A stretch of 64,000 nucleotides of DNA from an uncultured Candidatus Methanogranum sp. (GCA_964620455.1 CAZUIU010000004.1:111562-175561); one strand, 5' to 3'. Shown: positions 1 through 41,332, counted from the stretch's first letter. Notes: generated by a model not told the origin, from the sequence alone. Numbers and translations are program-made.

Positions 1-253
1 TCGGCAGAGGCAGACCGTAGAACGATGTCAATGACATCAGAGCATTCATCATGTTGCCCAATCCTGAACTCTGTATGGAGATCAGAGGTTTCCTACCACC
101 CATATATGCGCCCGCGCAGATCCCCACTCCATCCTCCTCACGTGTCAGATCCACGACATCGAAAGAATCATGAATCATGGATGTGAACAGCTTGTTACGG
201 TCACATGGCAGACTGGCTATGAGATCCACACCTGCCGATCTCAGAACCTCCAT
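1..253 (-). CDS. comD: sulfopyruvate decarboxylase alpha subunit (ComD), N-terminal part only; the gene runs off the window start
   Basis: My own minus-strand translation from ATG 253 gives MEVLRSAGVDLIASLPCDRNKLFTSMIHDSFDVVDLTREEDGVGICAGAYMGGRKPLISIQSSGLGNMMNALMSLTSFYGLPLP. This is a TPP-enzyme N-terminal fold with the ComD-like blocks 'TREEDGVG..GAY' and 'QSSGLGN..NAL'. A GAGG SD-like motif lies just upstream, and the gene starts 10 nt after the cysteate synthase stop. It is absent from the ORF track because it is truncated. Confidence 0.75.
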   Translation of the reverse strand, partial: MEVLRSAGVDLIASLPCDRNKLFTSMIHDSFDVVDLTREEDGVGICAGAYMGGRKPLISIQSSGLGNMMNALMSLTSFYGLPLP

Positions 254-263
254 TACCTTATCC

Positions 264-1514
264 TCATTCATTCAACAACCTCCTCAATTCATCCTCCGAA
301 ATATCTTTGTCAATGTTCGACTCAGGCTTTACGGTAACCATATCCAGATCCTCTTTGGCACGATCCAGACCGCCTCCGGTCATATTCAGGAAAATCCGAT
401 CTTCACAAGAAACGGAACCTTCCTCCACCGCTTTGATCAATGCCGCCAATGCCACGGAAGCCGCAGGATCGGGAACCACGGACTCGAATTTGCACCATAA
501 CTTCTCAGCTGAACGGGCCTCGGAGTTCGAAACACCAAAGAATTTACCTCCACACCTCGTCATGGCATCAAAAACCCCTCCATTCACACTATAAGGCGGT
601 TTGCGGTTAGTCAGCACATCCGAATAAACCTCCGCCTCATCCTTGGATGCATTACCTAGGTCCTCTTCGGTTATCTCCCTGCGACCCGCGTTCCATGCTT
701 TCACCATTGGAGCGAAAGGCATGTTCTGTGCAAGATCAAGCTTCGGAAGTTTGTCTCCGAAGCGACCATCCCCGATCAGACGTGTCGCAGCCTCCCATGC
801 AGCTATACCGCCGGTACCGCTACCGACAGCCTGGAAATAATGATCAGGTAACCTACCCATGAAGACTGCCCCTTCAAGAAGCACCGTCCCCATACCATCT
901 CTGCGTGCGATATTCTTGGCACCCCCCTCAGATACGAAACCGCCCAGTGCGGCTATGCGCTCCGACATCTGGATAGCATCGGTATAATCCCCGTCCACGG
1001 TGAACAACCTAACCTTACCTGTATCTTTCGTGATCTTGATACGGTCGCCCGATTTCTTAGGGACCACGATCACACACCGCTCCCCCGTATCCTCCGCCAC
1101 CTGGGCAAAGGCACGTGCCGTGTTACCGGCTGAGGCCAACAACATGGTGCCCCCTCCGCAATCCCTCAGACGGGCATATGTAGGAAGGGCTTCCATCTCT
1201 TTGAAGGAACAGGATTTCACGAATGCGTTCCTCTCGGGATAGTATCCCGTGAATCCTATACACAGGTCCTTGAGACCGAGTTCCCTGGATAGTTCGACAT
1301 TCCTGAACGCCACTGGTGCGGATACCGTGTCTATAACTGAGTGCACTGGGAGCCAGTCGTAGAATTTGAAAACACCTCCCATGTCCTTGACCTCAAGACG
1401 CTTGCTCTCATATTGCGCCCTCAACAACCCTTTATGACCATTCGGACAGGACAAGGTGTACCTTTCCTCTACCATCTCTCCCCCTTCCAAACACAACAAT
1501 GAATAATTACCCAT
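264..1514 (-). CDS. cysteate synthase-like PLP enzyme (threonine synthase fold), CoM biosynthesis
   Basis: Track ORF is 264..1535. The 1535 start is a TTG; I use ATG 1514, which gives a TGATG overlap with the upstream stop. The N-terminus 'MGNYSLLCLEGGEMVEERYTLSCPNGH' followed by a threonine-synthase-like body, and the position between the COG1900 gene and comD, fit the Methanosarcina-type cysteate synthase. Confidence 0.65.
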   Translation of the reverse strand: MGNYSLLCLEGGEMVEERYTLSCPNGHKGLLRAQYESKRLEVKDMGGVFKFYDWLPVHSVIDTVSAPVAFRNVELSRELGLKDLCIGFTGYYPERNAFVKSCSFKEMEALPTYARLRDCGGGTMLLASAGNTARAFAQVAEDTGERCVIVVPKKSGDRIKITKDTGKVRLFTVDGDYTDAIQMSERIAALGGFVSEGGAKNIARRDGMGTVLLEGAVFMGRLPDHYFQAVGSGTGGIAAWEAATRLIGDGRFGDKLPKLDLAQNMPFAPMVKAWNAGRREITEEDLGNASKDEAEVYSDVLTNRKPPYSVNGGVFDAMTRCGGKFFGVSNSEARSAEKLWCKFESVVPDPAASVALAALIKAVEEGSVSCEDRIFLNMTGGGLDRAKEDLDMVTVKPESNIDKDISEDELRRLLNE

Positions 1515-2755
1515 CAGAACACCTTCAGATTCCAATCGCCTTTCAACACCCTTTCTTTCAGATCTCTGCAGATCGCCTCTGCCTTGTAACGTGAGGACTG
1601 CCTCAGAGATATGGGCACTCTGACACCCTCACAATCGATATCACCCATATCGGCACTGAAAACATGACCTACGCATGAATCCACACAGCAACCGCACGAG
1701 ATGCAACGCCCCTCATCCCTCAGGCCGTACTCATCCAATGCGTTCGTGGGGCATACCCTCCTCGCCTTGCAGTCACAGCATCTGATGCACCTGGAGAAGT
1801 CCGCTTCCACACACAGATCTGTGTTCCCCCAAACCGATTCGTACCTCCCCACCTGTATCGGGACCCTGTCATGCACATCCGCTATGGGCATCGGTACATC
1901 CTTGTCCAAACAGGAGAGCCCCTTTATCGAATCCTCATCCAACACCGGTATGGCAACCGCTACGGAGGTCATGCACTCAGGCCCCCTGGATGTCCTGAAA
2001 CCACCCATATACTCCGGCACCATGCACCATATATCTGCAACTATGGAGAGGTTGGGTTTCTCGGATGTGCTCCTGGTACCCTCACCTATTATCATACCCG
2101 GGGCCCCATTCAACAGAACCGATGAACCCGAATGGAGATAACGCATATCCGGATCGTTCTGCAAGGGATTTATCTCCCCGCACCCACTGACCGTGGCCTC
2201 CGACAGATTACCATGCAACCCTTTTATGGTGGAAAATATCGTCTCCTCCACCCCTGAAGAATGATTGACGAAACACGTGTAGTTCTTGAATGAACTGCGG
2301 GTGGTCATCATCCTGGCGAACGGAAGGTCCTTCTTCGTTATACGGTTCTTGTACTGCCTGCCGTCGGACCAGACCGTCACATCTATCGGATTGCCCTCCA
2401 CTATGTCTTTGAAAAGATGACCTCCGCCATAATCCATATCCCTATGCGTTGTACCGTACACGATACAGTCCACCAGGCCCAGGGATTCATTCGGACATGG
2501 CCCCACATTACCCGGAACACCGTTGAGTTCTATGCGGTCGGCCTTCTTGAAAATACCTGGCCCCGCTACTGGGACCGTAAGTATCATCATAGTCCCCGAC
2601 ATTATGCCGAATGTCCCGCAGGTGACCGCATCCACATCATCCGGATTGATCTTCCTGCCACCACGCACCATCGCTTTGAACTCCGATGCGGTGTAGACCT
2701 TGGCATCTCTCTTGGAGACCTTGTCCTGAATCTGATCGATGTCCTTCATGGTCAT
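1514..2755 (-). CDS. COG1900/DUF39 sulfur-incorporation domain fused to a 2x[4Fe-4S] ferredoxin domain (MJ1681/ComF-like; candidate sulfoacetaldehyde to CoM enzyme)
   Basis: Track ORF is 1514..2797. I moved the start to ATG 2755, which gives a TGATG overlap. The resulting N-terminus 'MTMKDIDQIQDKVSKRDAKVYTASEF' is typical of the family. The C-terminal Cys clusters are 'CIRCCDCKARRVCP' and 'CISCGCCVDSC'. Confidence 0.65.
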   Translation of the reverse strand: MTMKDIDQIQDKVSKRDAKVYTASEFKAMVRGGRKINPDDVDAVTCGTFGIMSGTMMILTVPVAGPGIFKKADRIELNGVPGNVGPCPNESLGLVDCIVYGTTHRDMDYGGGHLFKDIVEGNPIDVTVWSDGRQYKNRITKKDLPFARMMTTRSSFKNYTCFVNHSSGVEETIFSTIKGLHGNLSEATVSGCGEINPLQNDPDMRYLHSGSSVLLNGAPGMIIGEGTRSTSEKPNLSIVADIWCMVPEYMGGFRTSRGPECMTSVAVAIPVLDEDSIKGLSCLDKDVPMPIADVHDRVPIQVGRYESVWGNTDLCVEADFSRCIRCCDCKARRVCPTNALDEYGLRDEGRCISCGCCVDSCVGHVFSADMGDIDCEGVRVPISLRQSSRYKAEAICRDLKERVLKGDWNLKVF

Positions 2756-3402
2756 CACATTATAACGATATCCTCTACCCTCACGTGAAGTCCCCATGGT
2801 TTTCCTATAACCATATTGACGAAACCTGTATGAGCCCTATCCATCATGCATGAGCCAGGGAGGAAACTGTATCTCCTCCCGAACTGAGGTTCCTCTGTTA
2901 CGGGAACCGCCATACCTTCGAATCCCAACATGTGATACTCCCTTATATCCTTAATTTCCTTGCCCCTTGAGAACTGAGGCCCCACTACATGTCCAGTTAT
3001 TACACCTGTGATAACATCTGCACTGATGACCCTTATGACATGTTGTACAGGACATCCCGCTCCCGAAGGACGACCTACCACGATATCCCCCTCATGGATA
3101 TCCCATTTTTCCACCAGATCAGGTCTGAAAGGCAGGATTATCTTCCTGGCAGACGGTTCCCCTAGTATCGGTTGCATCACGAAAGAATATCTTTGTCCTG
3201 TTATGTCCACACCGCTGTAGTTATGCTTGAGGATATCGTCCGATGGCTTCTTCACAGCTATGAAGAACGGACATGCCCTTTGAGATACCTTGCCCTCTGC
3301 GACCCTCGACATGAATTCATCACACGATGAGGACCCACAGGCCCCGCAGTTCTTCCCAGGAGGGACCCAGTCATTCTCCACGGTATATGTTGTCTTCATC
3401 AT
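2755..3402 (-). CDS. Fe-S cluster domain protein (RnfB/CdhE N-terminal-type 4-Cys motif) with an uncharacterised C-terminal domain
   Basis: The N-terminal 'CGACGSSSCDEF..(16)..CP' is a CX2CX4CX16CP pattern, as in the putative Fe-S domain of RnfB and the ACDS gamma subunit. An AGGAGG SD lies 4-5 nt upstream of the ATG-ATG start, inside the 3' end of the upstream gene (32-nt overlap). Confidence 0.55.
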   Translation of the reverse strand: MMKTTYTVENDWVPPGKNCGACGSSSCDEFMSRVAEGKVSQRACPFFIAVKKPSDDILKHNYSGVDITGQRYSFVMQPILGEPSARKIILPFRPDLVEKWDIHEGDIVVGRPSGAGCPVQHVIRVISADVITGVITGHVVGPQFSRGKEIKDIREYHMLGFEGMAVPVTEEPQFGRRYSFLPGSCMMDRAHTGFVNMVIGKPWGLHVRVEDIVIM

Positions 3403-4084
3403 CCAACCTCCTGATTACACCGAAATGATTCTGCCAACCAACTTCCTTCTTACCTATGCATATGGTACAGACGCCTAGGGGTGGAATACCTCTCAATTTT
3501 ACACTTGATATATCGCCGATACTGTCCACGGAATCCATGAGACGGTATAGATACTTCATCCCGGTACCCTGTATGGCATTAGTCTCGATTATGTCCATAT
3601 CCGGAGAGACCCTGCGTATGGATTCTCTGAACACCTCCTTCTCCGCCTGTGATATAAGATCGGTCTTGGTAACGACACATACATCCGAAAGGGCTATCAT
3701 AGGCGCCATCTTCAAAGGCGCATGCATTCCTGATATGGCAGACATGACACATATACCGAGTGAGTTCGTTAGATATGGTGTGCATCTAAGACACAGCCCC
3801 GCACTCTCATATATGAGAACGTCCGCACCCTCACCCTCAGCCCAATCAAGAGCATCACGGACGACCATTATGCCCATGTGATCCGGACAGACATCACCCG
3901 AGTACACCTTCTTGGTCGGTATACCATAATCCTTCTGCAGTTCCTCATCCTCGAATGCCGCGACCACGTCCACCTTCAGATACGCGACCTTTTTTGACGG
4001 AAGGAGATGTTCTATCATCTGCCTGACCACAGCCGTCTTGCCTGCACTCGGAGGGCCCGCGATTACCATCAGTGTGACGTTCAA
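3371..4084 (-). CDS. P-loop NTPase, SIMIBI/G3E-like (HypB/UreG/CooC-like metallochaperone family candidate)
   Basis: Walker A is 'GPPSAGKT', the Walker B-like region with Cys pair is 'LIYESAGLCLRC', and the NKxD-like motif is 'VVTKTDL'. The start is either TTG 4084 (TTGA overlap with the upstream stop) or ATG 4069. Confidence 0.5.
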   Translation of the reverse strand: MNVTLMVIAGPPSAGKTAVVRQMIEHLLPSKKVAYLKVDVVAAFEDEELQKDYGIPTKKVYSGDVCPDHMGIMVVRDALDWAEGEGADVLIYESAGLCLRCTPYLTNSLGICVMSAISGMHAPLKMAPMIALSDVCVVTKTDLISQAEKEVFRESIRRVSPDMDIIETNAIQGTGMKYLYRLMDSVDSIGDISSVKLRGIPPLGVCTICIGKKEVGWQNHFGVIRRLDDEDNIYRGE

Positions 4085-4860
4085 ATCGACACACCTCTGA
4101 TTATCTCGCCCATCCTTATCCTCTCGCGTATATCCATGAATACCTCGTCCATCCTGCTTATCATCTTGAGAGCCTCCTTCTCACTGTCCTCAGGATACAA
4201 GATGGACACGACTTCTCCGCCCCTCATCACGATACGGCGGTCTGAAAGCAGAGAAACATATGGATCATGTGTCACGAAGATCACAGCTTTTCCCAATTCC
4301 TTTATCCTGGAGATCACGACATCCTTGAATATACCGGCATTCTCGATCTCATCCAGAAGCAGTATCGGTGCATCGGAGATCATGACCGCATCAGCGATCA
4401 TCATGGAACGCGTCTGCCCACCTGACAACGAAGATATCCTTGTATCTGCGTTCATCTTCTCACCTGTGAACTCATTGGCCAGCGACACAGTTACGGGAAC
4501 GATGTCACTGACGGCATTACCGCGTGTGGATGCATGCATGGACAGAAACTCGCCAACGGTGAGATCCGCCAGACACTTGGAGTTCTGGGTTATCATCGCT
4601 ATAGGCTTGCATGCTGGATCTCTGACGAAACTCTCCGGCGGTACCTCACCGTTGACCATGACCCTACGTTTGGTCACGGTGTCCCCTTGTGCGAAAACCT
4701 CTATATCGTTTATCAGTGCGGTTTTACCGGATCCCGTCGGACCCACTATGGATATTGTATCCCCTGGACGGATATCTATCGGTTCGAAAACCTCTTTCCT
4801 TCCATCTTTTGTCGTTCCGGGATGGATTGTAACGATTATACCTTCAGAGAATGCGCTCAT
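4081..4860 (-). CDS. ABC-type ATPase with no permease or substrate-binding partner in the window
   Basis: Walker A is 'GPTGSGKT', the ABC signature is 'LSGGQ', Walker B is 'ILLLDE' and the H-loop is 'VTHD'. It is the first gene of the co-directional block that ends in the CoM genes. Confidence 0.75.
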   Translation of the reverse strand: MSAFSEGIIVTIHPGTTKDGRKEVFEPIDIRPGDTISIVGPTGSGKTALINDIEVFAQGDTVTKRRVMVNGEVPPESFVRDPACKPIAMITQNSKCLADLTVGEFLSMHASTRGNAVSDIVPVTVSLANEFTGEKMNADTRISSLSGGQTRSMMIADAVMISDAPILLLDEIENAGIFKDVVISRIKELGKAVIFVTHDPYVSLLSDRRIVMRGGEVVSILYPEDSEKEALKMISRMDEVFMDIRERIRMGEIIRGVSI

Positions 4861-4882
4861 GATTGTCGAAGGAACAACACAG

Positions 4883-4895
4883 ATATTATATATTT
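4883..4895 (-). promoter_or_regulatory. TATA-like box for the 4860..1 operon (leaderless-type spacing)
   Basis: The minus strand reads AAATATATAATAT, centred about 29 nt upstream of the ATG at 4860. It lies in an AT-rich 160-nt spacer. The call rests on motif and position only. Confidence 0.35.
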
Positions 4896-5019
4896 CGGAT
4901 AATTTCTCCTAATTAGGATAAATTATTTAATAAAATCAATTTTGTATAATGAATATACAAAAGTAATAGGTCCTTTCGGACCTGTAATAGGTTTGTAGTG
5001 CTTAGACCGAATATCCAAA

Positions 5020-38511: not shown

Positions 38512-40056
38512 TCACAAAGGAATCTGGCCGGTGTCACCCACCAGATATCCTTTGGCGATCCTTTCGAACTCTCCAACATTAGCCGGATACCAGGATCTGA
38601 AATCAGACCCTTGAGATTCGACAGCCTTACCTACATCCTCCAGGAACGATGGTACATCCTTCTGCAATATTTTACCGATCGGAGTCCCAAAACATTCCTC
38701 CCCAGCCATATGTGACCCGTTCACCGACACCAGAAACGCAGGCTGTGATTCTCCGTTCGAATCCCTCACCGAGGTCCCCTGAAGGCCTATTATGCCTATC
38801 TGATGCGCAGCACAGGACGATGTGCATCCTGATATCCGGATACGTGGCAACACACCGTCACGGAATGTGTTCCTTCTGGACATCTCAACGAGTTCATCAA
38901 GAAGGCCGCGCGAATCCCTCAGACCCTGTTGACATATCGTCGAACCGACACATGATACGGAGGTCTCGAAAAGATTGATGGCTCCGTCATCCGTTATAAT
39001 TTGAACCCTCTCGGCCTCTTTTGCATTACAGTTTATTATGTACAATGTCTGATCGGGCGATGTGCGCAGCTCCACACCAGGCATATCCTTTATGGTTTCG
39101 TAGATCTCCCTAAACTTTCCAGGTCTGGGATCTCCGCCAACTGCATGGTATTCCACATAATACAGCCCATCCTGCTTCTGAGAATGAACCCTCGGCATAT
39201 CAATTGATCCTTTGCCCTTTTTCAGAATCGGAATGATCTCCGGATCCATATCCAATCCGCCATATTTGAGGGACTCTTCTAGTTCAGAACAGAACGCCTT
39301 CCTGTAACCTTCCTCCCCCAATGTCTCCTGCATGTAACGAGTCCTGGCCCTCGACCTGTTCTCGTAATCACCATGTTTGACAAATGTCCTGACCATAGCC
39401 CTCACATAGTAAAGCACAAGCGTGGGATCCACATCTTCGGCCACCAGAAGACCCATACGAGGATCCTTACCGAGACCGCCCGCACTGTACACATCGAATC
39501 TGCCATCCGACCTGGCCAGGAATCCGAGATCCCTGAAAGTTGCATGGACCTCATTCCTCTTTGAGTTGGAAAAACCGACCTTCAACTTCCTGGGTAGTTT
39601 AACATTACCTATGATTGATAACAGGTAACCCTCAACAACCCTCGCATAAGGCAGTATATCGAAACACTCATCGATCTCGACACCGGAAAGCGGAGATGCC
39701 GTGACATTACGTGGAAAATCTCCACCTCCTCCGAGAGTCATTATTCCATGTTCTATGGCTTCTTTCACCAGATTACATGCATCTTCACCATCCAAACCAT
39801 GGAGCTGCACGGCTTGACATGTGGTCTGATGCACGAAATCTACCCCGTATCTCTCTATACTTTCAACAATGAAACGGAGTCTGTCTACATCTATGGCACC
39901 TCCGACCAGGCGGAGACGTACCATGCTCTTGGACATACCCTTCTGAGCATAACTGCCGAACCCACCGGATATGCTCTTGTACTCCTTCACACTGGACTTT
40001 CCGGCATAGAACCTCCGTGTGGCCTCACGGAAGTCCTCCAGATCCATCGCAGTCAT
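38512..40056 (-). CDS. siroheme-[4Fe-4S] sulfite/nitrite reductase-type hemoprotein
   Basis: The classical coupling motif is present as 'CVGSTIC' (CX5C) plus 'CTSSC' (CX3C). A duplicated nitrite/sulfite reductase ferredoxin-like half-domain layout is visible. The start overlaps the ubiD-like stop (ATGA). Confidence 0.7.
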   Translation of the reverse strand: MTAMDLEDFREATRRFYAGKSSVKEYKSISGGFGSYAQKGMSKSMVRLRLVGGAIDVDRLRFIVESIERYGVDFVHQTTCQAVQLHGLDGEDACNLVKEAIEHGIMTLGGGGDFPRNVTASPLSGVEIDECFDILPYARVVEGYLLSIIGNVKLPRKLKVGFSNSKRNEVHATFRDLGFLARSDGRFDVYSAGGLGKDPRMGLLVAEDVDPTLVLYYVRAMVRTFVKHGDYENRSRARTRYMQETLGEEGYRKAFCSELEESLKYGGLDMDPEIIPILKKGKGSIDMPRVHSQKQDGLYYVEYHAVGGDPRPGKFREIYETIKDMPGVELRTSPDQTLYIINCNAKEAERVQIITDDGAINLFETSVSCVGSTICQQGLRDSRGLLDELVEMSRRNTFRDGVLPRIRISGCTSSCAAHQIGIIGLQGTSVRDSNGESQPAFLVSVNGSHMAGEECFGTPIGKILQKDVPSFLEDVGKAVESQGSDFRSWYPANVGEFERIAKGYLVGDTGQIPL

Positions 40057-41312
40057 AACGTGGCCTTTTTGAACATCTTCTTATCTGAATCCAATGGAAT
40101 AGTCGCATCGAATCCGACTTTGTATGTTGTACCATGCGTACTAGGATCCAAAGAAGAACCTGCCGCTCCGGGTATCTTGATTATTCTGTCCCCCTGCATC
40201 CTAGTAGCCACCGCCCATTCCACTTCACGGTCGTCGAATATGTTTATGTCATCGTCGACAACTATGACGTTCTTCATGGAAGGATGACCTGTGAATGCGG
40301 CAAGTATCGCGTTCACACCATCCCCCTCCTTGTTCTTGGTTATGGATACCACTCCGTTGAGCCAACAACACCCTCCCTCGGTCAGACGAACGTTCCTAAC
40401 CCTGGGCACAGCCTGCCTCACCGTTTTGAATATCATGGGTTCCCTTGGAAGTCCCATGAGCAAGAAATGATCGTATCCTCCGGGAAGCAGAAGGTGGAAA
40501 TAAGGATCTGTGTTGGACCAGACTTTGTCGATTTTTATAACTGGCTGACTGCGGACGTAATCATACGTTCCCGTTATGTCCACAAAAGGCCCTTCCTGAG
40601 TGGTCTCTAGGGTTATCCTTCCCTCCATGACATAATCACACTCTGACGGGACCAGTATGCCATTATCACATCTTCCGACCTTCAACGGAGAACCGTGGTC
40701 CCTGTTCATAAGAGAAGAAGCTACCCTTAACTCATCCCCTCCGTAATCCATGGCAACGGCCGCGGACAGGAGGACCTCCACAGGTGCACCTACGCAGATG
40801 GCTATGTTCAACTCCTTACCGGAGTTCTTGGATTCCGTGAACATGGTGTAAAGATGCCTGGGCACCAAACGGACAGCGATACTGTTCTTATCCATTATCA
40901 TCATCCGATGGAACGAGACATTCCTTTTCCCGTCGAATTCCGCTATGATTACACCCGCTGTGATGTAGCGTCCCCCGTCCTCCGGGAAATACTTGGGTAT
41001 AGGTAATGAGGTCAGATCTACATCCAATTCCCTGGATCTGAACACCGGGTCATCGACCTCCACAGTATCCATCGGCATATCGATTGCTGTCATCAGACTT
41101 TCCACGATGCCATCGGGGGATATCCCCATGGATTCGGCTATCTTCTTCCTTGTCGAGAAGACGTTACCGGCAGCTTTGCCGCCATTGAGATCCTTGAAGA
41201 TGAAAGTGGTCTCCTGATCACTCGTGAGAATCCTGGTGACTTCGCAGGAATCAGAATCTATCGTATCATCCACAACACGAACGTTTCCATGGAACGAGTC
41301 CTTCAAAGACAT
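40053..41312 (-). CDS. UbiD-family (prFMN-dependent) decarboxylase
   Basis: Conserved blocks are 'AVRLVPRHLY', 'GPFVDITGTYD' and 'VVVDDDINIFD'. The protein is about 420 aa. I prefer the start at ATG 41312 because of a TATA-like box 25 nt upstream; the alternative is ATG 41330. Confidence 0.75.
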   Translation of the reverse strand: MSLKDSFHGNVRVVDDTIDSDSCEVTRILTSDQETTFIFKDLNGGKAAGNVFSTRKKIAESMGISPDGIVESLMTAIDMPMDTVEVDDPVFRSRELDVDLTSLPIPKYFPEDGGRYITAGVIIAEFDGKRNVSFHRMMIMDKNSIAVRLVPRHLYTMFTESKNSGKELNIAICVGAPVEVLLSAAVAMDYGGDELRVASSLMNRDHGSPLKVGRCDNGILVPSECDYVMEGRITLETTQEGPFVDITGTYDYVRSQPVIKIDKVWSNTDPYFHLLLPGGYDHFLLMGLPREPMIFKTVRQAVPRVRNVRLTEGGCCWLNGVVSITKNKEGDGVNAILAAFTGHPSMKNVIVVDDDINIFDDREVEWAVATRMQGDRIIKIPGAAGSSLDPSTHGTTYKVGFDATIPLDSDKKMFKKATL

Positions 41313-41332
41313 GCATAAGCCATCGCACATAC

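Follow-up and report, generated by a model that had tools for sequence, protein, structure and literature searches.

The 64,000-nucleotide (nt) stretch of DNA analyzed here, referred to as the window, comes from an uncultured Candidatus Methanogranum sp. (GCA_964620455.1, CAZUIU010000004.1:111562-175561), whose genome of 1.53 Mb is 99.9% complete and has its nearest relatives among Methanomassiliicoccales of the Methanogranum/Methanoplasma type. Six overlapping open reading frames (ORFs) run on the minus strand from position 4860 to the window edge, forming an operon for coenzyme M (CoM) synthesis. All of them translate cleanly, and in the 5' to 3' direction they encode an ABC-type ATPase, a G3E GTPase, a COG2000 Fe-S protein, MMP16/ComF, cysteate synthase, and ComD (Table 1). 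We call the first three genes the trio. The same order, ending in ComD or ComDE, recurs in about 70 archaeal loci of the Methanomassiliicoccales, Methanomicrobiales, and Methanosarcinales; thus, the arrangement in the window is not a product of chance. The trio is a mobile, self-contained module that is present in bacteria too, which we report as new, and its gene partners point tentatively to a role at the sulfite-dependent entry into CoM synthesis.

Table 1. Features of the CoM operon at the start of the window, with the profile match or sequence element on which each assignment rests
Feature	Coordinates	Strand	Basis
Soluble ABC-type ATPase, 259 amino acids (aa), no permease partner	4081..4860	-	PF00005, 54.2 bits vs cut-off 25
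G3E-family (HypB/UreG-like) P-loop GTPase, 237 aa	3371..4084	-	PF02492, 51.1 bits vs cut-off 20.7
COG2000 protein, 215 aa: N-terminal CX2CX4CX16C cluster domain and beta-rich C-terminal domain	2755..3402	-	PF04060, 38.8 bits vs cut-off 23
MMP16/ComF, COG1900 domain and 2x[4Fe-4S] ferredoxin domain	1514..2797	-	TIGR03287, 504.5 bits vs cut-off 363.95, model 1-390 of 391
Cysteate synthase (O-phosphoserine + sulfite -> cysteate)	264..1535	-	TIGR03844, 579.5 bits vs cut-off 324.9
ComD, sulfopyruvate decarboxylase subunit, N-terminal 90 aa, cut by window edge	1..271	-	TIGR03845, model 1-90 of 160
AT-rich upstream spacer, 159 nt	4861..5019	-	TATA-like AAATATATAAT at 4885-4895, ~29 nt before ATG at 4860

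The successive overlaps down the operon, read from the sequence, are 4, 32, 1-43, 1, and 8 nt. The ABC and G3E genes share a TTGA (4081-4084), and the G3E and COG2000 genes share 32 nt (3371-3402), with an AGGAGG at 3406-3411 ahead of the COG2000 start. A TGATG joins COG2000 to MMP16 (2753-2757) and another joins MMP16 to cysteate synthase (1512-1516), while cysteate synthase and ComD overlap at 264-271. A first-pass annotation of the window had described the six co-directional genes, their overlaps, the TGATG junctions, the internal AGGAGG, and the TATA-like box about 29 nt upstream of the first ATG, and all of these are directly readable. The gene places in that annotation stand, but not every start does, as 271 is a likelier start for ComD than 253. 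The G3E gene has two candidate starts (TTG 4084 and ATG 4069) and MMP16 has three (2797, 2755, and 2749), and the TGATG junction makes ATG 1514 the likely start of cysteate synthase. The GC fraction drops to 0.44 in 4501-5000, and the spacer ahead of the ABC gene, the sole AT-rich one of the operon, is with its TATA-like box the likely operon promoter. Among the downstream genes, MMP16 is the main CoM synthase (PMC12068725). The truncated ComD, which the window edge cuts at residue 90 of about 160, scores 124.1 bits against a cut-off of 147.95, and orthologous loci carry full-length ComD/E in the corresponding place.

The ABC-type ATPase keeps the motifs of its family invariant in 29 orthologues (Walker A G40-T47, Q-loop Q92, LSGGQ L145-Q149, Walker B D170-E171, and H-loop H198). 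Its closest solved relatives are importer ATPases such as AlgS and MalK. Together with the PF00005 match and the SsuA-like binding protein encoded near some trios, this could suit an ATPase that energizes the import of CoM or a sulfonate through a permease from another locus, with the two genes beside it being unrelated neighbors. Such an importer is scarcely credible: about 130 loci show no membrane-domain or permease gene next to the trio, the three genes always occur together in a fixed order and overlap, and the ATPase is fused to a G3E GTPase in many relatives. All NCBIfam transporter equivalogs also score far under their cut-offs for the window protein, and the earlier description of an ABC ATPase lacking a permease partner holds in every locus examined. 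The closest longer relatives of the ATPase are ABC::G3E and ABC::nitroreductase fusion proteins, and the three such fusions that we looked up all lie inside nitrogenase clusters. The ABC::G3E fusions indicate that the ATPase and the GTPase act together, and they suggest that the two form an accessory module to chemistry that depends on a metallocentre. The genes surrounding the fusions (L135:5353-6945, L136:6297-8512, and L137:3310-4836) encode NifA-like, NifX, NifEN-like, NifU, ModABC, ModE-like, AnfO, and NifH proteins. In the cofactor of nitrogenase, the ninth sulfur has been reported to derive from sulfite (PMC10701300).

The G3E GTPase is a putative metallochaperone, judging from its family match and its conserved ligands. 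It scores 68.6 bits against the HypB model TIGR00073 and 29.6 bits against the UreG model TIGR00101, under the respective cut-offs of 121.2 and 204.2. Among solved structures, M. jannaschii HypB (2hf8, E 1.9e-8) is the best match, in an alignment that spans the metal ligands. The invariant residues comprise C66-P-D-H69, C98xxC101, C206xxC209, and H220, and these Cys/His ligands along with the PF02492 match agree with the first-pass annotation, which had taken the NTPase for a protein of the G3E metallochaperone type.

The COG2000 protein combines a short Fe-S domain with a conserved domain for which our searches returned no convincing match. The PF04060 match covers residues 15-46 only, where C19, C22, C27, and C44, the predicted cluster site, are invariant in every aligned member of the family. 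Residues invariant across the whole family, divergent members included, are R111, G116, C117, P118, H121, P142, G163, P182, C185, H191, and G193. The C-terminal domain thus holds a 2Cys/2His set (C117, H121, C185, and H191), to which several invariant Arg/Lys residues are added in close orthologues, and this set may form a second metal site or small cluster beside an anion-binding surface. In an AlphaFold2 model (predicted local distance difference test score 86), the cluster domain is small and helical, and the domain after it is rich in beta structure. Foldseek comparison of this model with the PDB returned nothing better than E 0.16, and VIA-align gave a best Z of 4.5, to small PUA-like barrels. 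An ESM Atlas search returned only the protein's own family, a feature search of the Atlas returned nothing, and a profile search of the PDB matched the cluster domain alone (residues 6-51), leaving the remaining 160 residues unmatched; these missing matches do not establish a new fold. The label "RnfB-type Fe-S protein" given earlier fits the 33-residue N-terminal cluster domain but not the remainder, since the RnfB model NF041836 reaches 19.9 bits against a cut-off of 445 and covers residues 13-46 only. The NIR_SIR domain of siroheme sulfite reductases (PF01077) was absent from all three trio proteins in a Pfam/NCBIfam scan. The family is small, since clustering of 1.84 billion proteins at 50% gives it 215 representatives, and its conservation across archaeal orders is unusually high (55-73% identity). 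A prediction of the ABC, G3E, and COG2000 proteins as a complex, with an alignment per protein, scored 0.01 against a mark of 0.32, which speaks neither for nor against an interaction.

These properties also fit a more agnostic division of labor, in which the ABC ATPase and the GTPase are a generic maturation pair for metallocentres and COG2000 is their client with a role other than making sulfite, such as a sulfite carrier or chaperone, a sulfur relay, or a redox or sensing function. The fusions within nitrogenase clusters, beside Mod transport, NifEN-like, NifX, and NifU genes, and the HypB-like metal ligands of the GTPase favor such a pair, as do the trio's dispensability in many genomes with cysteate synthase or ComA, the two-component system that precedes the trio in Bacteroidota, and a divergent COG2000 paralogue in Methanothrix that has no ABC or G3E neighbor. 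This paralogue (L133:7708-9931) lies between an FeS_assembly_P protein (PF01883) and a LarE-like ATP-dependent sulfurtransferase, and near CysK and O-acetylhomoserine sulfhydrylase. However, a generic pair would leave the near-constant co-occurrence with ComA or cysteate synthase and the repeated adjacency to them unexplained, and a passive carrier has no obvious need for an ATPase, a GTPase, and a redox cluster. We judge this account unlikely.

The co-localization of the trio with CoM genes is not in itself new, since the same three families were published beside CoM genes in several methanogen orders, with their role given as unknown (Chadwick et al. 2025, PLoS Genet, PMC12068725, Fig 2B). 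That trio belongs to the same families as the one in the window (an ATPase, a Ni2+-binding GTPase, and COG2000, with MMP16, cysteate synthase, and comDE). The first-pass annotation was right that these families are absent from every described CoM pathway, although the co-localization had nonetheless been published. The approximately 70 archaeal loci support its reading in that the trio is conserved within CoM clusters and tightly coupled to them. Chadwick et al. did not analyze the trio itself, and our data extend theirs by the bacterial distribution with ComA, the independence from MMP16, the variants with NifS, ThiS, ThiF, and SsuA-like genes, the relatives in nif clusters, and the conserved 2Cys/2His site. 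The order ABC-G3E-COG2000 is kept not only in the archaea but also in 20/20 fetched bacterial loci and in the Bacteroidota loci. Bacterial hosts comprise Clostridia/Peptococcaceae-type bacteria, one Candidatus Auribacterota metagenome-assembled genome (MAG), one UBP3 MAG, and Bacteroidota. Identities among the 24 bacterial sequences of COG2000 are 52-90%, so these do not form one recent clade. No named member of the Methanococcales or Methanobacteriales was found among the homologues or clusters examined; the genomes of these orders were not searched. M. acetivorans MA3300-MA3302 was considered as a trio and rejected, as MA3300 is a MoaD/ThiS protein. A complete archaeal CoM operon is found on contigs binned as Dialister hominis, Faecalibacterium sp., Eggerthellaceae, Acutalibacteraceae, and Bacilli (L016, L017, L018, L020, and L030); their COG2000 sequences have 57-60% identity to that of the window, and these contigs look like mis-binned Methanomethylophilaceae or Methanocorpusculum.

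In bacteria, the trio can adjoin the gene of a sulfonate synthase. Five Clostridia-type loci carry either ComA-ComB-trio (L081 and L113) or ComA-trio (L075, L128, and L069). An apparent ComA::ABC fusion in L069 (137-2017, Desulfotomaculum sp. UBA7919) was rejected because it is created by a stretch of N that separates the two genes, but the adjacency stands; the G3E gene of this locus is likewise interrupted by a run of N. A conserved ORF of 132-150 aa without a Pfam match precedes ComA near GerA germination genes (L081:6265-6669, L075:6931-7329, L113:12952-13404, and L128:6010-6408), a context consistent with sporulation, in which sulfolactate is made. A different, Q-rich ORF of about 110 aa lies ahead of the trio in L112, L115, L119, and L120. 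Bacterial trios that do not adjoin ComA have heterogeneous and uninformative neighbors, including a multihaem cytochrome, a methyl-accepting chemotaxis protein, and a 2-oxoacid:ferredoxin oxidoreductase. In genomes of about 6 Mb and in a Bacteroidota MAG, genes for a HisKA_3 histidine kinase and a LuxR-type response regulator lie immediately ahead of the trio (L095:6796-10669 and L097:4622-8586). The trio is split in the Auribacterota MAG (L049:9261-12444) and the UBP3 MAG (L077:913-4052) by a 331-aa short-chain dehydrogenase/reductase resembling 4,6-dehydratases, which scores 86 bits against dTDP-glucose 4,6-dehydratases and 24-30 bits against the SQD1 model for UDP-sulfoquinovose synthase, over the Rossmann start only. 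The surroundings form a nonulosonic-acid/sugar cluster with DegT, PseG-like, NeuB, CMP-transferase, and B12-radical SAM genes, which could be a pathway to a sulfonated sugar; the Auribacterota genome encodes ComA elsewhere.

The archaeal loci fall into three flavors. The first is the arrangement of the window. In the second, cysteate synthase precedes ABC-G3E-COG2000-ComD-ComE and MMP16 lies convergent on the opposite strand (L145-L156); L132 similarly has cysteate synthase with the trio and a convergent MMP16. In the third, an SsuA-like protein, ThiF, and ThiS are followed by ABC, G3E, a NifS-like desulfurase, and COG2000, beside IscS-IscU (L138-L144 and L134), and cysteate synthase is encoded elsewhere in these genomes. 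A NifS/IscS-type desulfurase is inserted between G3E and COG2000 in L134 and L138-L140, and in L138-L144 and L157 the trio is flanked by genes for SsuA-like protein, ThiF, and ThiS. The genome of Methanospirillum lacunae contains two trios: that of L045 belongs to its CoM operon, and that of L157 is followed by SsuA-like protein, ThiF, and ThiS.

Genome-level co-occurrence ties the trio to the enzymes that consume sulfite. Our bacterial sample consisted of 401 genomes from the phylum of one trio-bearing bacterium, of which 22 counted as trio-bearing by a COG2000 match at E < 1e-93, and the archaeal sample consisted of 171 genomes from the phylum of Methanospirillum, 38 of them with COG2000. 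ComA was found in 5/5 of the bacterial trio genomes tested first, and in the full sample it is encoded by 21/22 trio-bearing genomes vs 111/379 others (29%; odds ratio 51, p 3.7e-10), a link that persists when conditioned on COG1900. Cysteate synthase is present in 38/38 trio-bearing archaeal genomes vs 48/133 others (p 4e-14), and ComA is absent from five trio-bearing archaeal genomes. Altogether, 59/60 sampled trio-bearing genomes encode ComA or cysteate synthase. ComA and COG1900 are mutually independent among the 401 genomes (odds ratio 1.0), and the trio occurs in 16/46 genomes with both, 5/86 with ComA only, 1/94 with COG1900 only, and 0/175 with neither. ComA is thus a near-necessary companion of the trio, and COG1900 is not.

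This distribution bears on the proposal of the first-pass annotation that the Fe-S-dependent COG1900 enzyme MMP16/ComF relies on the trio for its maturation or for a supply of electrons or sulfur; in a broader form, the trio would serve COG1900 sulfurtransferases in general. The proposal draws on the gene order, as COG2000 lies directly upstream of MMP16 and overlaps it in about 70 loci, and on the ThiS/ThiF-type sulfur carriers near some trios. COG1900 is also enriched in trio-bearing bacteria (17/22 vs 123/379, or 32%; p 4e-5), an enrichment that may simply mark sulfide-assimilating strict anaerobes. On one Logan contig, COG2000 (69% identity) and a COG1900/HcyBio domain are encoded by a single ORF of 629 aa (P0363). 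The fusion may be genuine or, because the stop of COG2000 and the start of MMP16 overlap, may stem from an error of one base there. Against service to MMP16, however, none of 25 trio-bearing bacterial genomes encodes MMP16 over the cut-off, most holding only an ordinary COG1900 protein of the homocysteine type, and five trio-bearing genomes, one represented by a 3.1-Mb contig, lack any COG1900 protein. Likewise, no COG1900 gene adjoins the trio in any bacterial locus examined, and MMP16 is convergent to the trio in the second archaeal flavor. The co-occurrence that the annotation had proposed to examine is seen for cysteate synthase in archaea, but about half of the archaea with cysteate synthase lack the trio, and MMP16 fails to accompany it in bacteria. 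The constant partner is instead ComA or cysteate synthase, and we consider it quite unlikely that the client is the COG1900 step.

The sulfite-dependent first step offers a better candidate. Both archaeal CoM routes start with a sulfite-requiring enzyme, and methanogens, to which sulfite is toxic, depend on sulfide and are mostly unable to reduce sulfate. ComA, which uses phosphoenolpyruvate and sulfite, and cysteate synthase, which uses O-phosphoserine and sulfite, are unrelated and have sulfite as their only common substrate (PMC12713407). Where sulfide-dependent methanogens obtain the sulfite for CoM has been posed as an open question (PMC3448663). Dsr-LP, the one source proposed, was doubted by its own authors (PMC3448663) and is missing from some methanogens. 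Because the trio is nested within the genomes that encode a sulfonate synthase, lies adjacent to these synthases, and is sometimes accompanied by a desulfurase and ThiS/ThiF, we infer that it may provide the first step with the sulfur of the sulfonate group, in the form of sulfite or an enzyme-bound equivalent, rather than acting on ComF. We put the probability of this reading at roughly 0.4.

A more specific and rather doubtful version is that the trio, helped in some lineages by the NifS-type desulfurase, ThiS/ThiF, and the SsuA-like protein, constitutes a hitherto unrecognized anaerobic "sulfite synthase," i.e., a nucleoside triphosphate (NTP)-driven Fe-S metalloenzyme system that would convert sulfur from sulfide or cysteine to sulfite for cysteate synthase and phosphosulfolactate synthase. 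While domain content, residue conservation, gene order, co-occurrence, and fusions are observed, we infer from them which step the trio serves, in which direction the sulfur chemistry runs, and what each protein does. In the broader reading of sulfonate-sulfur supply, reduced or activated sulfur would enter as sulfide, cysteine-desulfurase persulfide, or ThiS thiocarboxylate. COG2000 would be the working metalloprotein, with its N-terminal [4Fe-4S] cluster transferring electrons and the 2Cys/2His site acting within an Arg/Lys-rich beta domain. The GTPase would load or maintain this metal site, and the ABC ATPase would energize the process.

The same client could be served by the opposite chemistry, with NTP-driven reduction or cleavage of sulfate or thiosulfate to sulfite bypassing adenosine 5'-phosphosulfate (APS) or 3'-phosphoadenosine 5'-phosphosulfate (PAPS) reductase. 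Two NTPases and a low-potential cluster would suit such an energetically uphill reduction, only 1/22 trio-bearing genomes has a CysH-type reductase, genes for sulfate activation of the CysN/C-like and CysD-like kinds lie about 3 kb from the trio in locus L061, and the nif-cluster relatives adjoin oxyanion-binding proteins and Mod transporters. The recurrent partners of the trio, however, are mobilizers of reduced sulfur (NifS and ThiS/ThiF) and not sulfate activators, the hosts are mostly sulfide-assimilating anaerobes, and the ABC fold is not known as an adenylyl- or sulfuryl-transferase, making reduction very improbable.

Several observations weigh against a role of the trio in supplying sulfonate sulfur. 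We know of no precedent for sulfide being oxidized to sulfite by one [4Fe-4S] cluster and one small metal site, and COG2000 has no similarity to any known sulfite-forming enzyme. The trio is missing from 48/86 archaea with cysteate synthase and 111/132 bacteria with ComA; therefore, another sulfite source must exist, and the trio could be merely accessory. The anticorrelation with CysH-type APS/PAPS reductase is not significant (1/21 vs 17/111, p 0.30), the COG1900 enrichment in trio-bearing bacteria speaks for a different client, and the co-occurrence statistics ignore phylogeny and include many incomplete MAGs. The window also contains a 514-aa NirA/sulfite-reductase-like hemoprotein gene at 38512-40056 on the minus strand, the only NIR_SIR gene of the genome, whose product scores 98.7 bits against PF01077, falls under the NirA, CysI, and CobG equivalog cut-offs, and could itself produce or consume sulfite in this organism; a UbiD-family decarboxylase gene (40053-41330, minus strand) lies upstream of the hemoprotein gene and overlaps it. 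The patchy distribution, the null CysH result, this hemoprotein, and the unprecedented redox chemistry are why our estimate is not higher.

A supply of sulfonate sulfur by the trio would have consequences beyond this operon. To our knowledge, CoM is indispensable for all biological methane formation and anaerobic alkane oxidation, and the trio would fill the last unexplained input of its pathway. It would also represent a new kind of sulfur-oxidizing or sulfur-delivering metalloenzyme and explain sulfolactate synthesis in anaerobic spore formers. If the trio is indeed a sulfite synthase, the source of sulfonate sulfur in strict anaerobes, whether for CoM, spore sulfolactate, or other sulfonates, would be answered. 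Even if this interpretation is wrong, the comparative data steer experiments away from ComF maturation.

The proposed activity can be compared with known systems at the level of the pathway and of each protein. The rDsr and sHdr systems of sulfur oxidizers oxidize protein-bound sulfane sulfur to sulfite. They are functional analogs only, in that carrier-bound reduced sulfur is converted to sulfite in the cytoplasm and is fed by sulfur-relay proteins; unlike the trio, they rely on siroheme or noncubane Hdr clusters and lipoate-binding proteins and serve energy metabolism instead of biosynthesis, and no homology was detected. The GTPase shares with HypB and UreG the P-loop G3E fold by sequence, the PF02492 match, and a putative metalloprotein client encoded alongside, and the metal ligands of M. 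jannaschii HypB align with its Cys-His metal motif and second Cys. It differs from them in falling under the equivalog cut-offs, in an extra invariant C-terminal CxxC...H, in its pairing with an ABC ATPase (fused in relatives), and in having no hydrogenase or urease nearby. COG2000 has the PF04060 CX2CX4CX16C motif in common with the N-termini of RnfB and of AcsC/CdhE, the large subunit of the corrinoid/Fe-S protein (profile match to 4djd_C, E 2.7e-8, plus RnfB chains), but the match is restricted to residues 6-51 and the beta-rich rest has no PDB sequence or fold match. The fusions of nif/anf clusters differ from the window in lacking a COG2000 partner and in their Mod transport, solute-binding protein-like, NifEN-like, and NifX neighbors, and they are themselves uncharacterized; they nevertheless share 38-50% identity with the ABC ATPase, pair it with G3E, and occur in contexts of complex metallocluster assembly.

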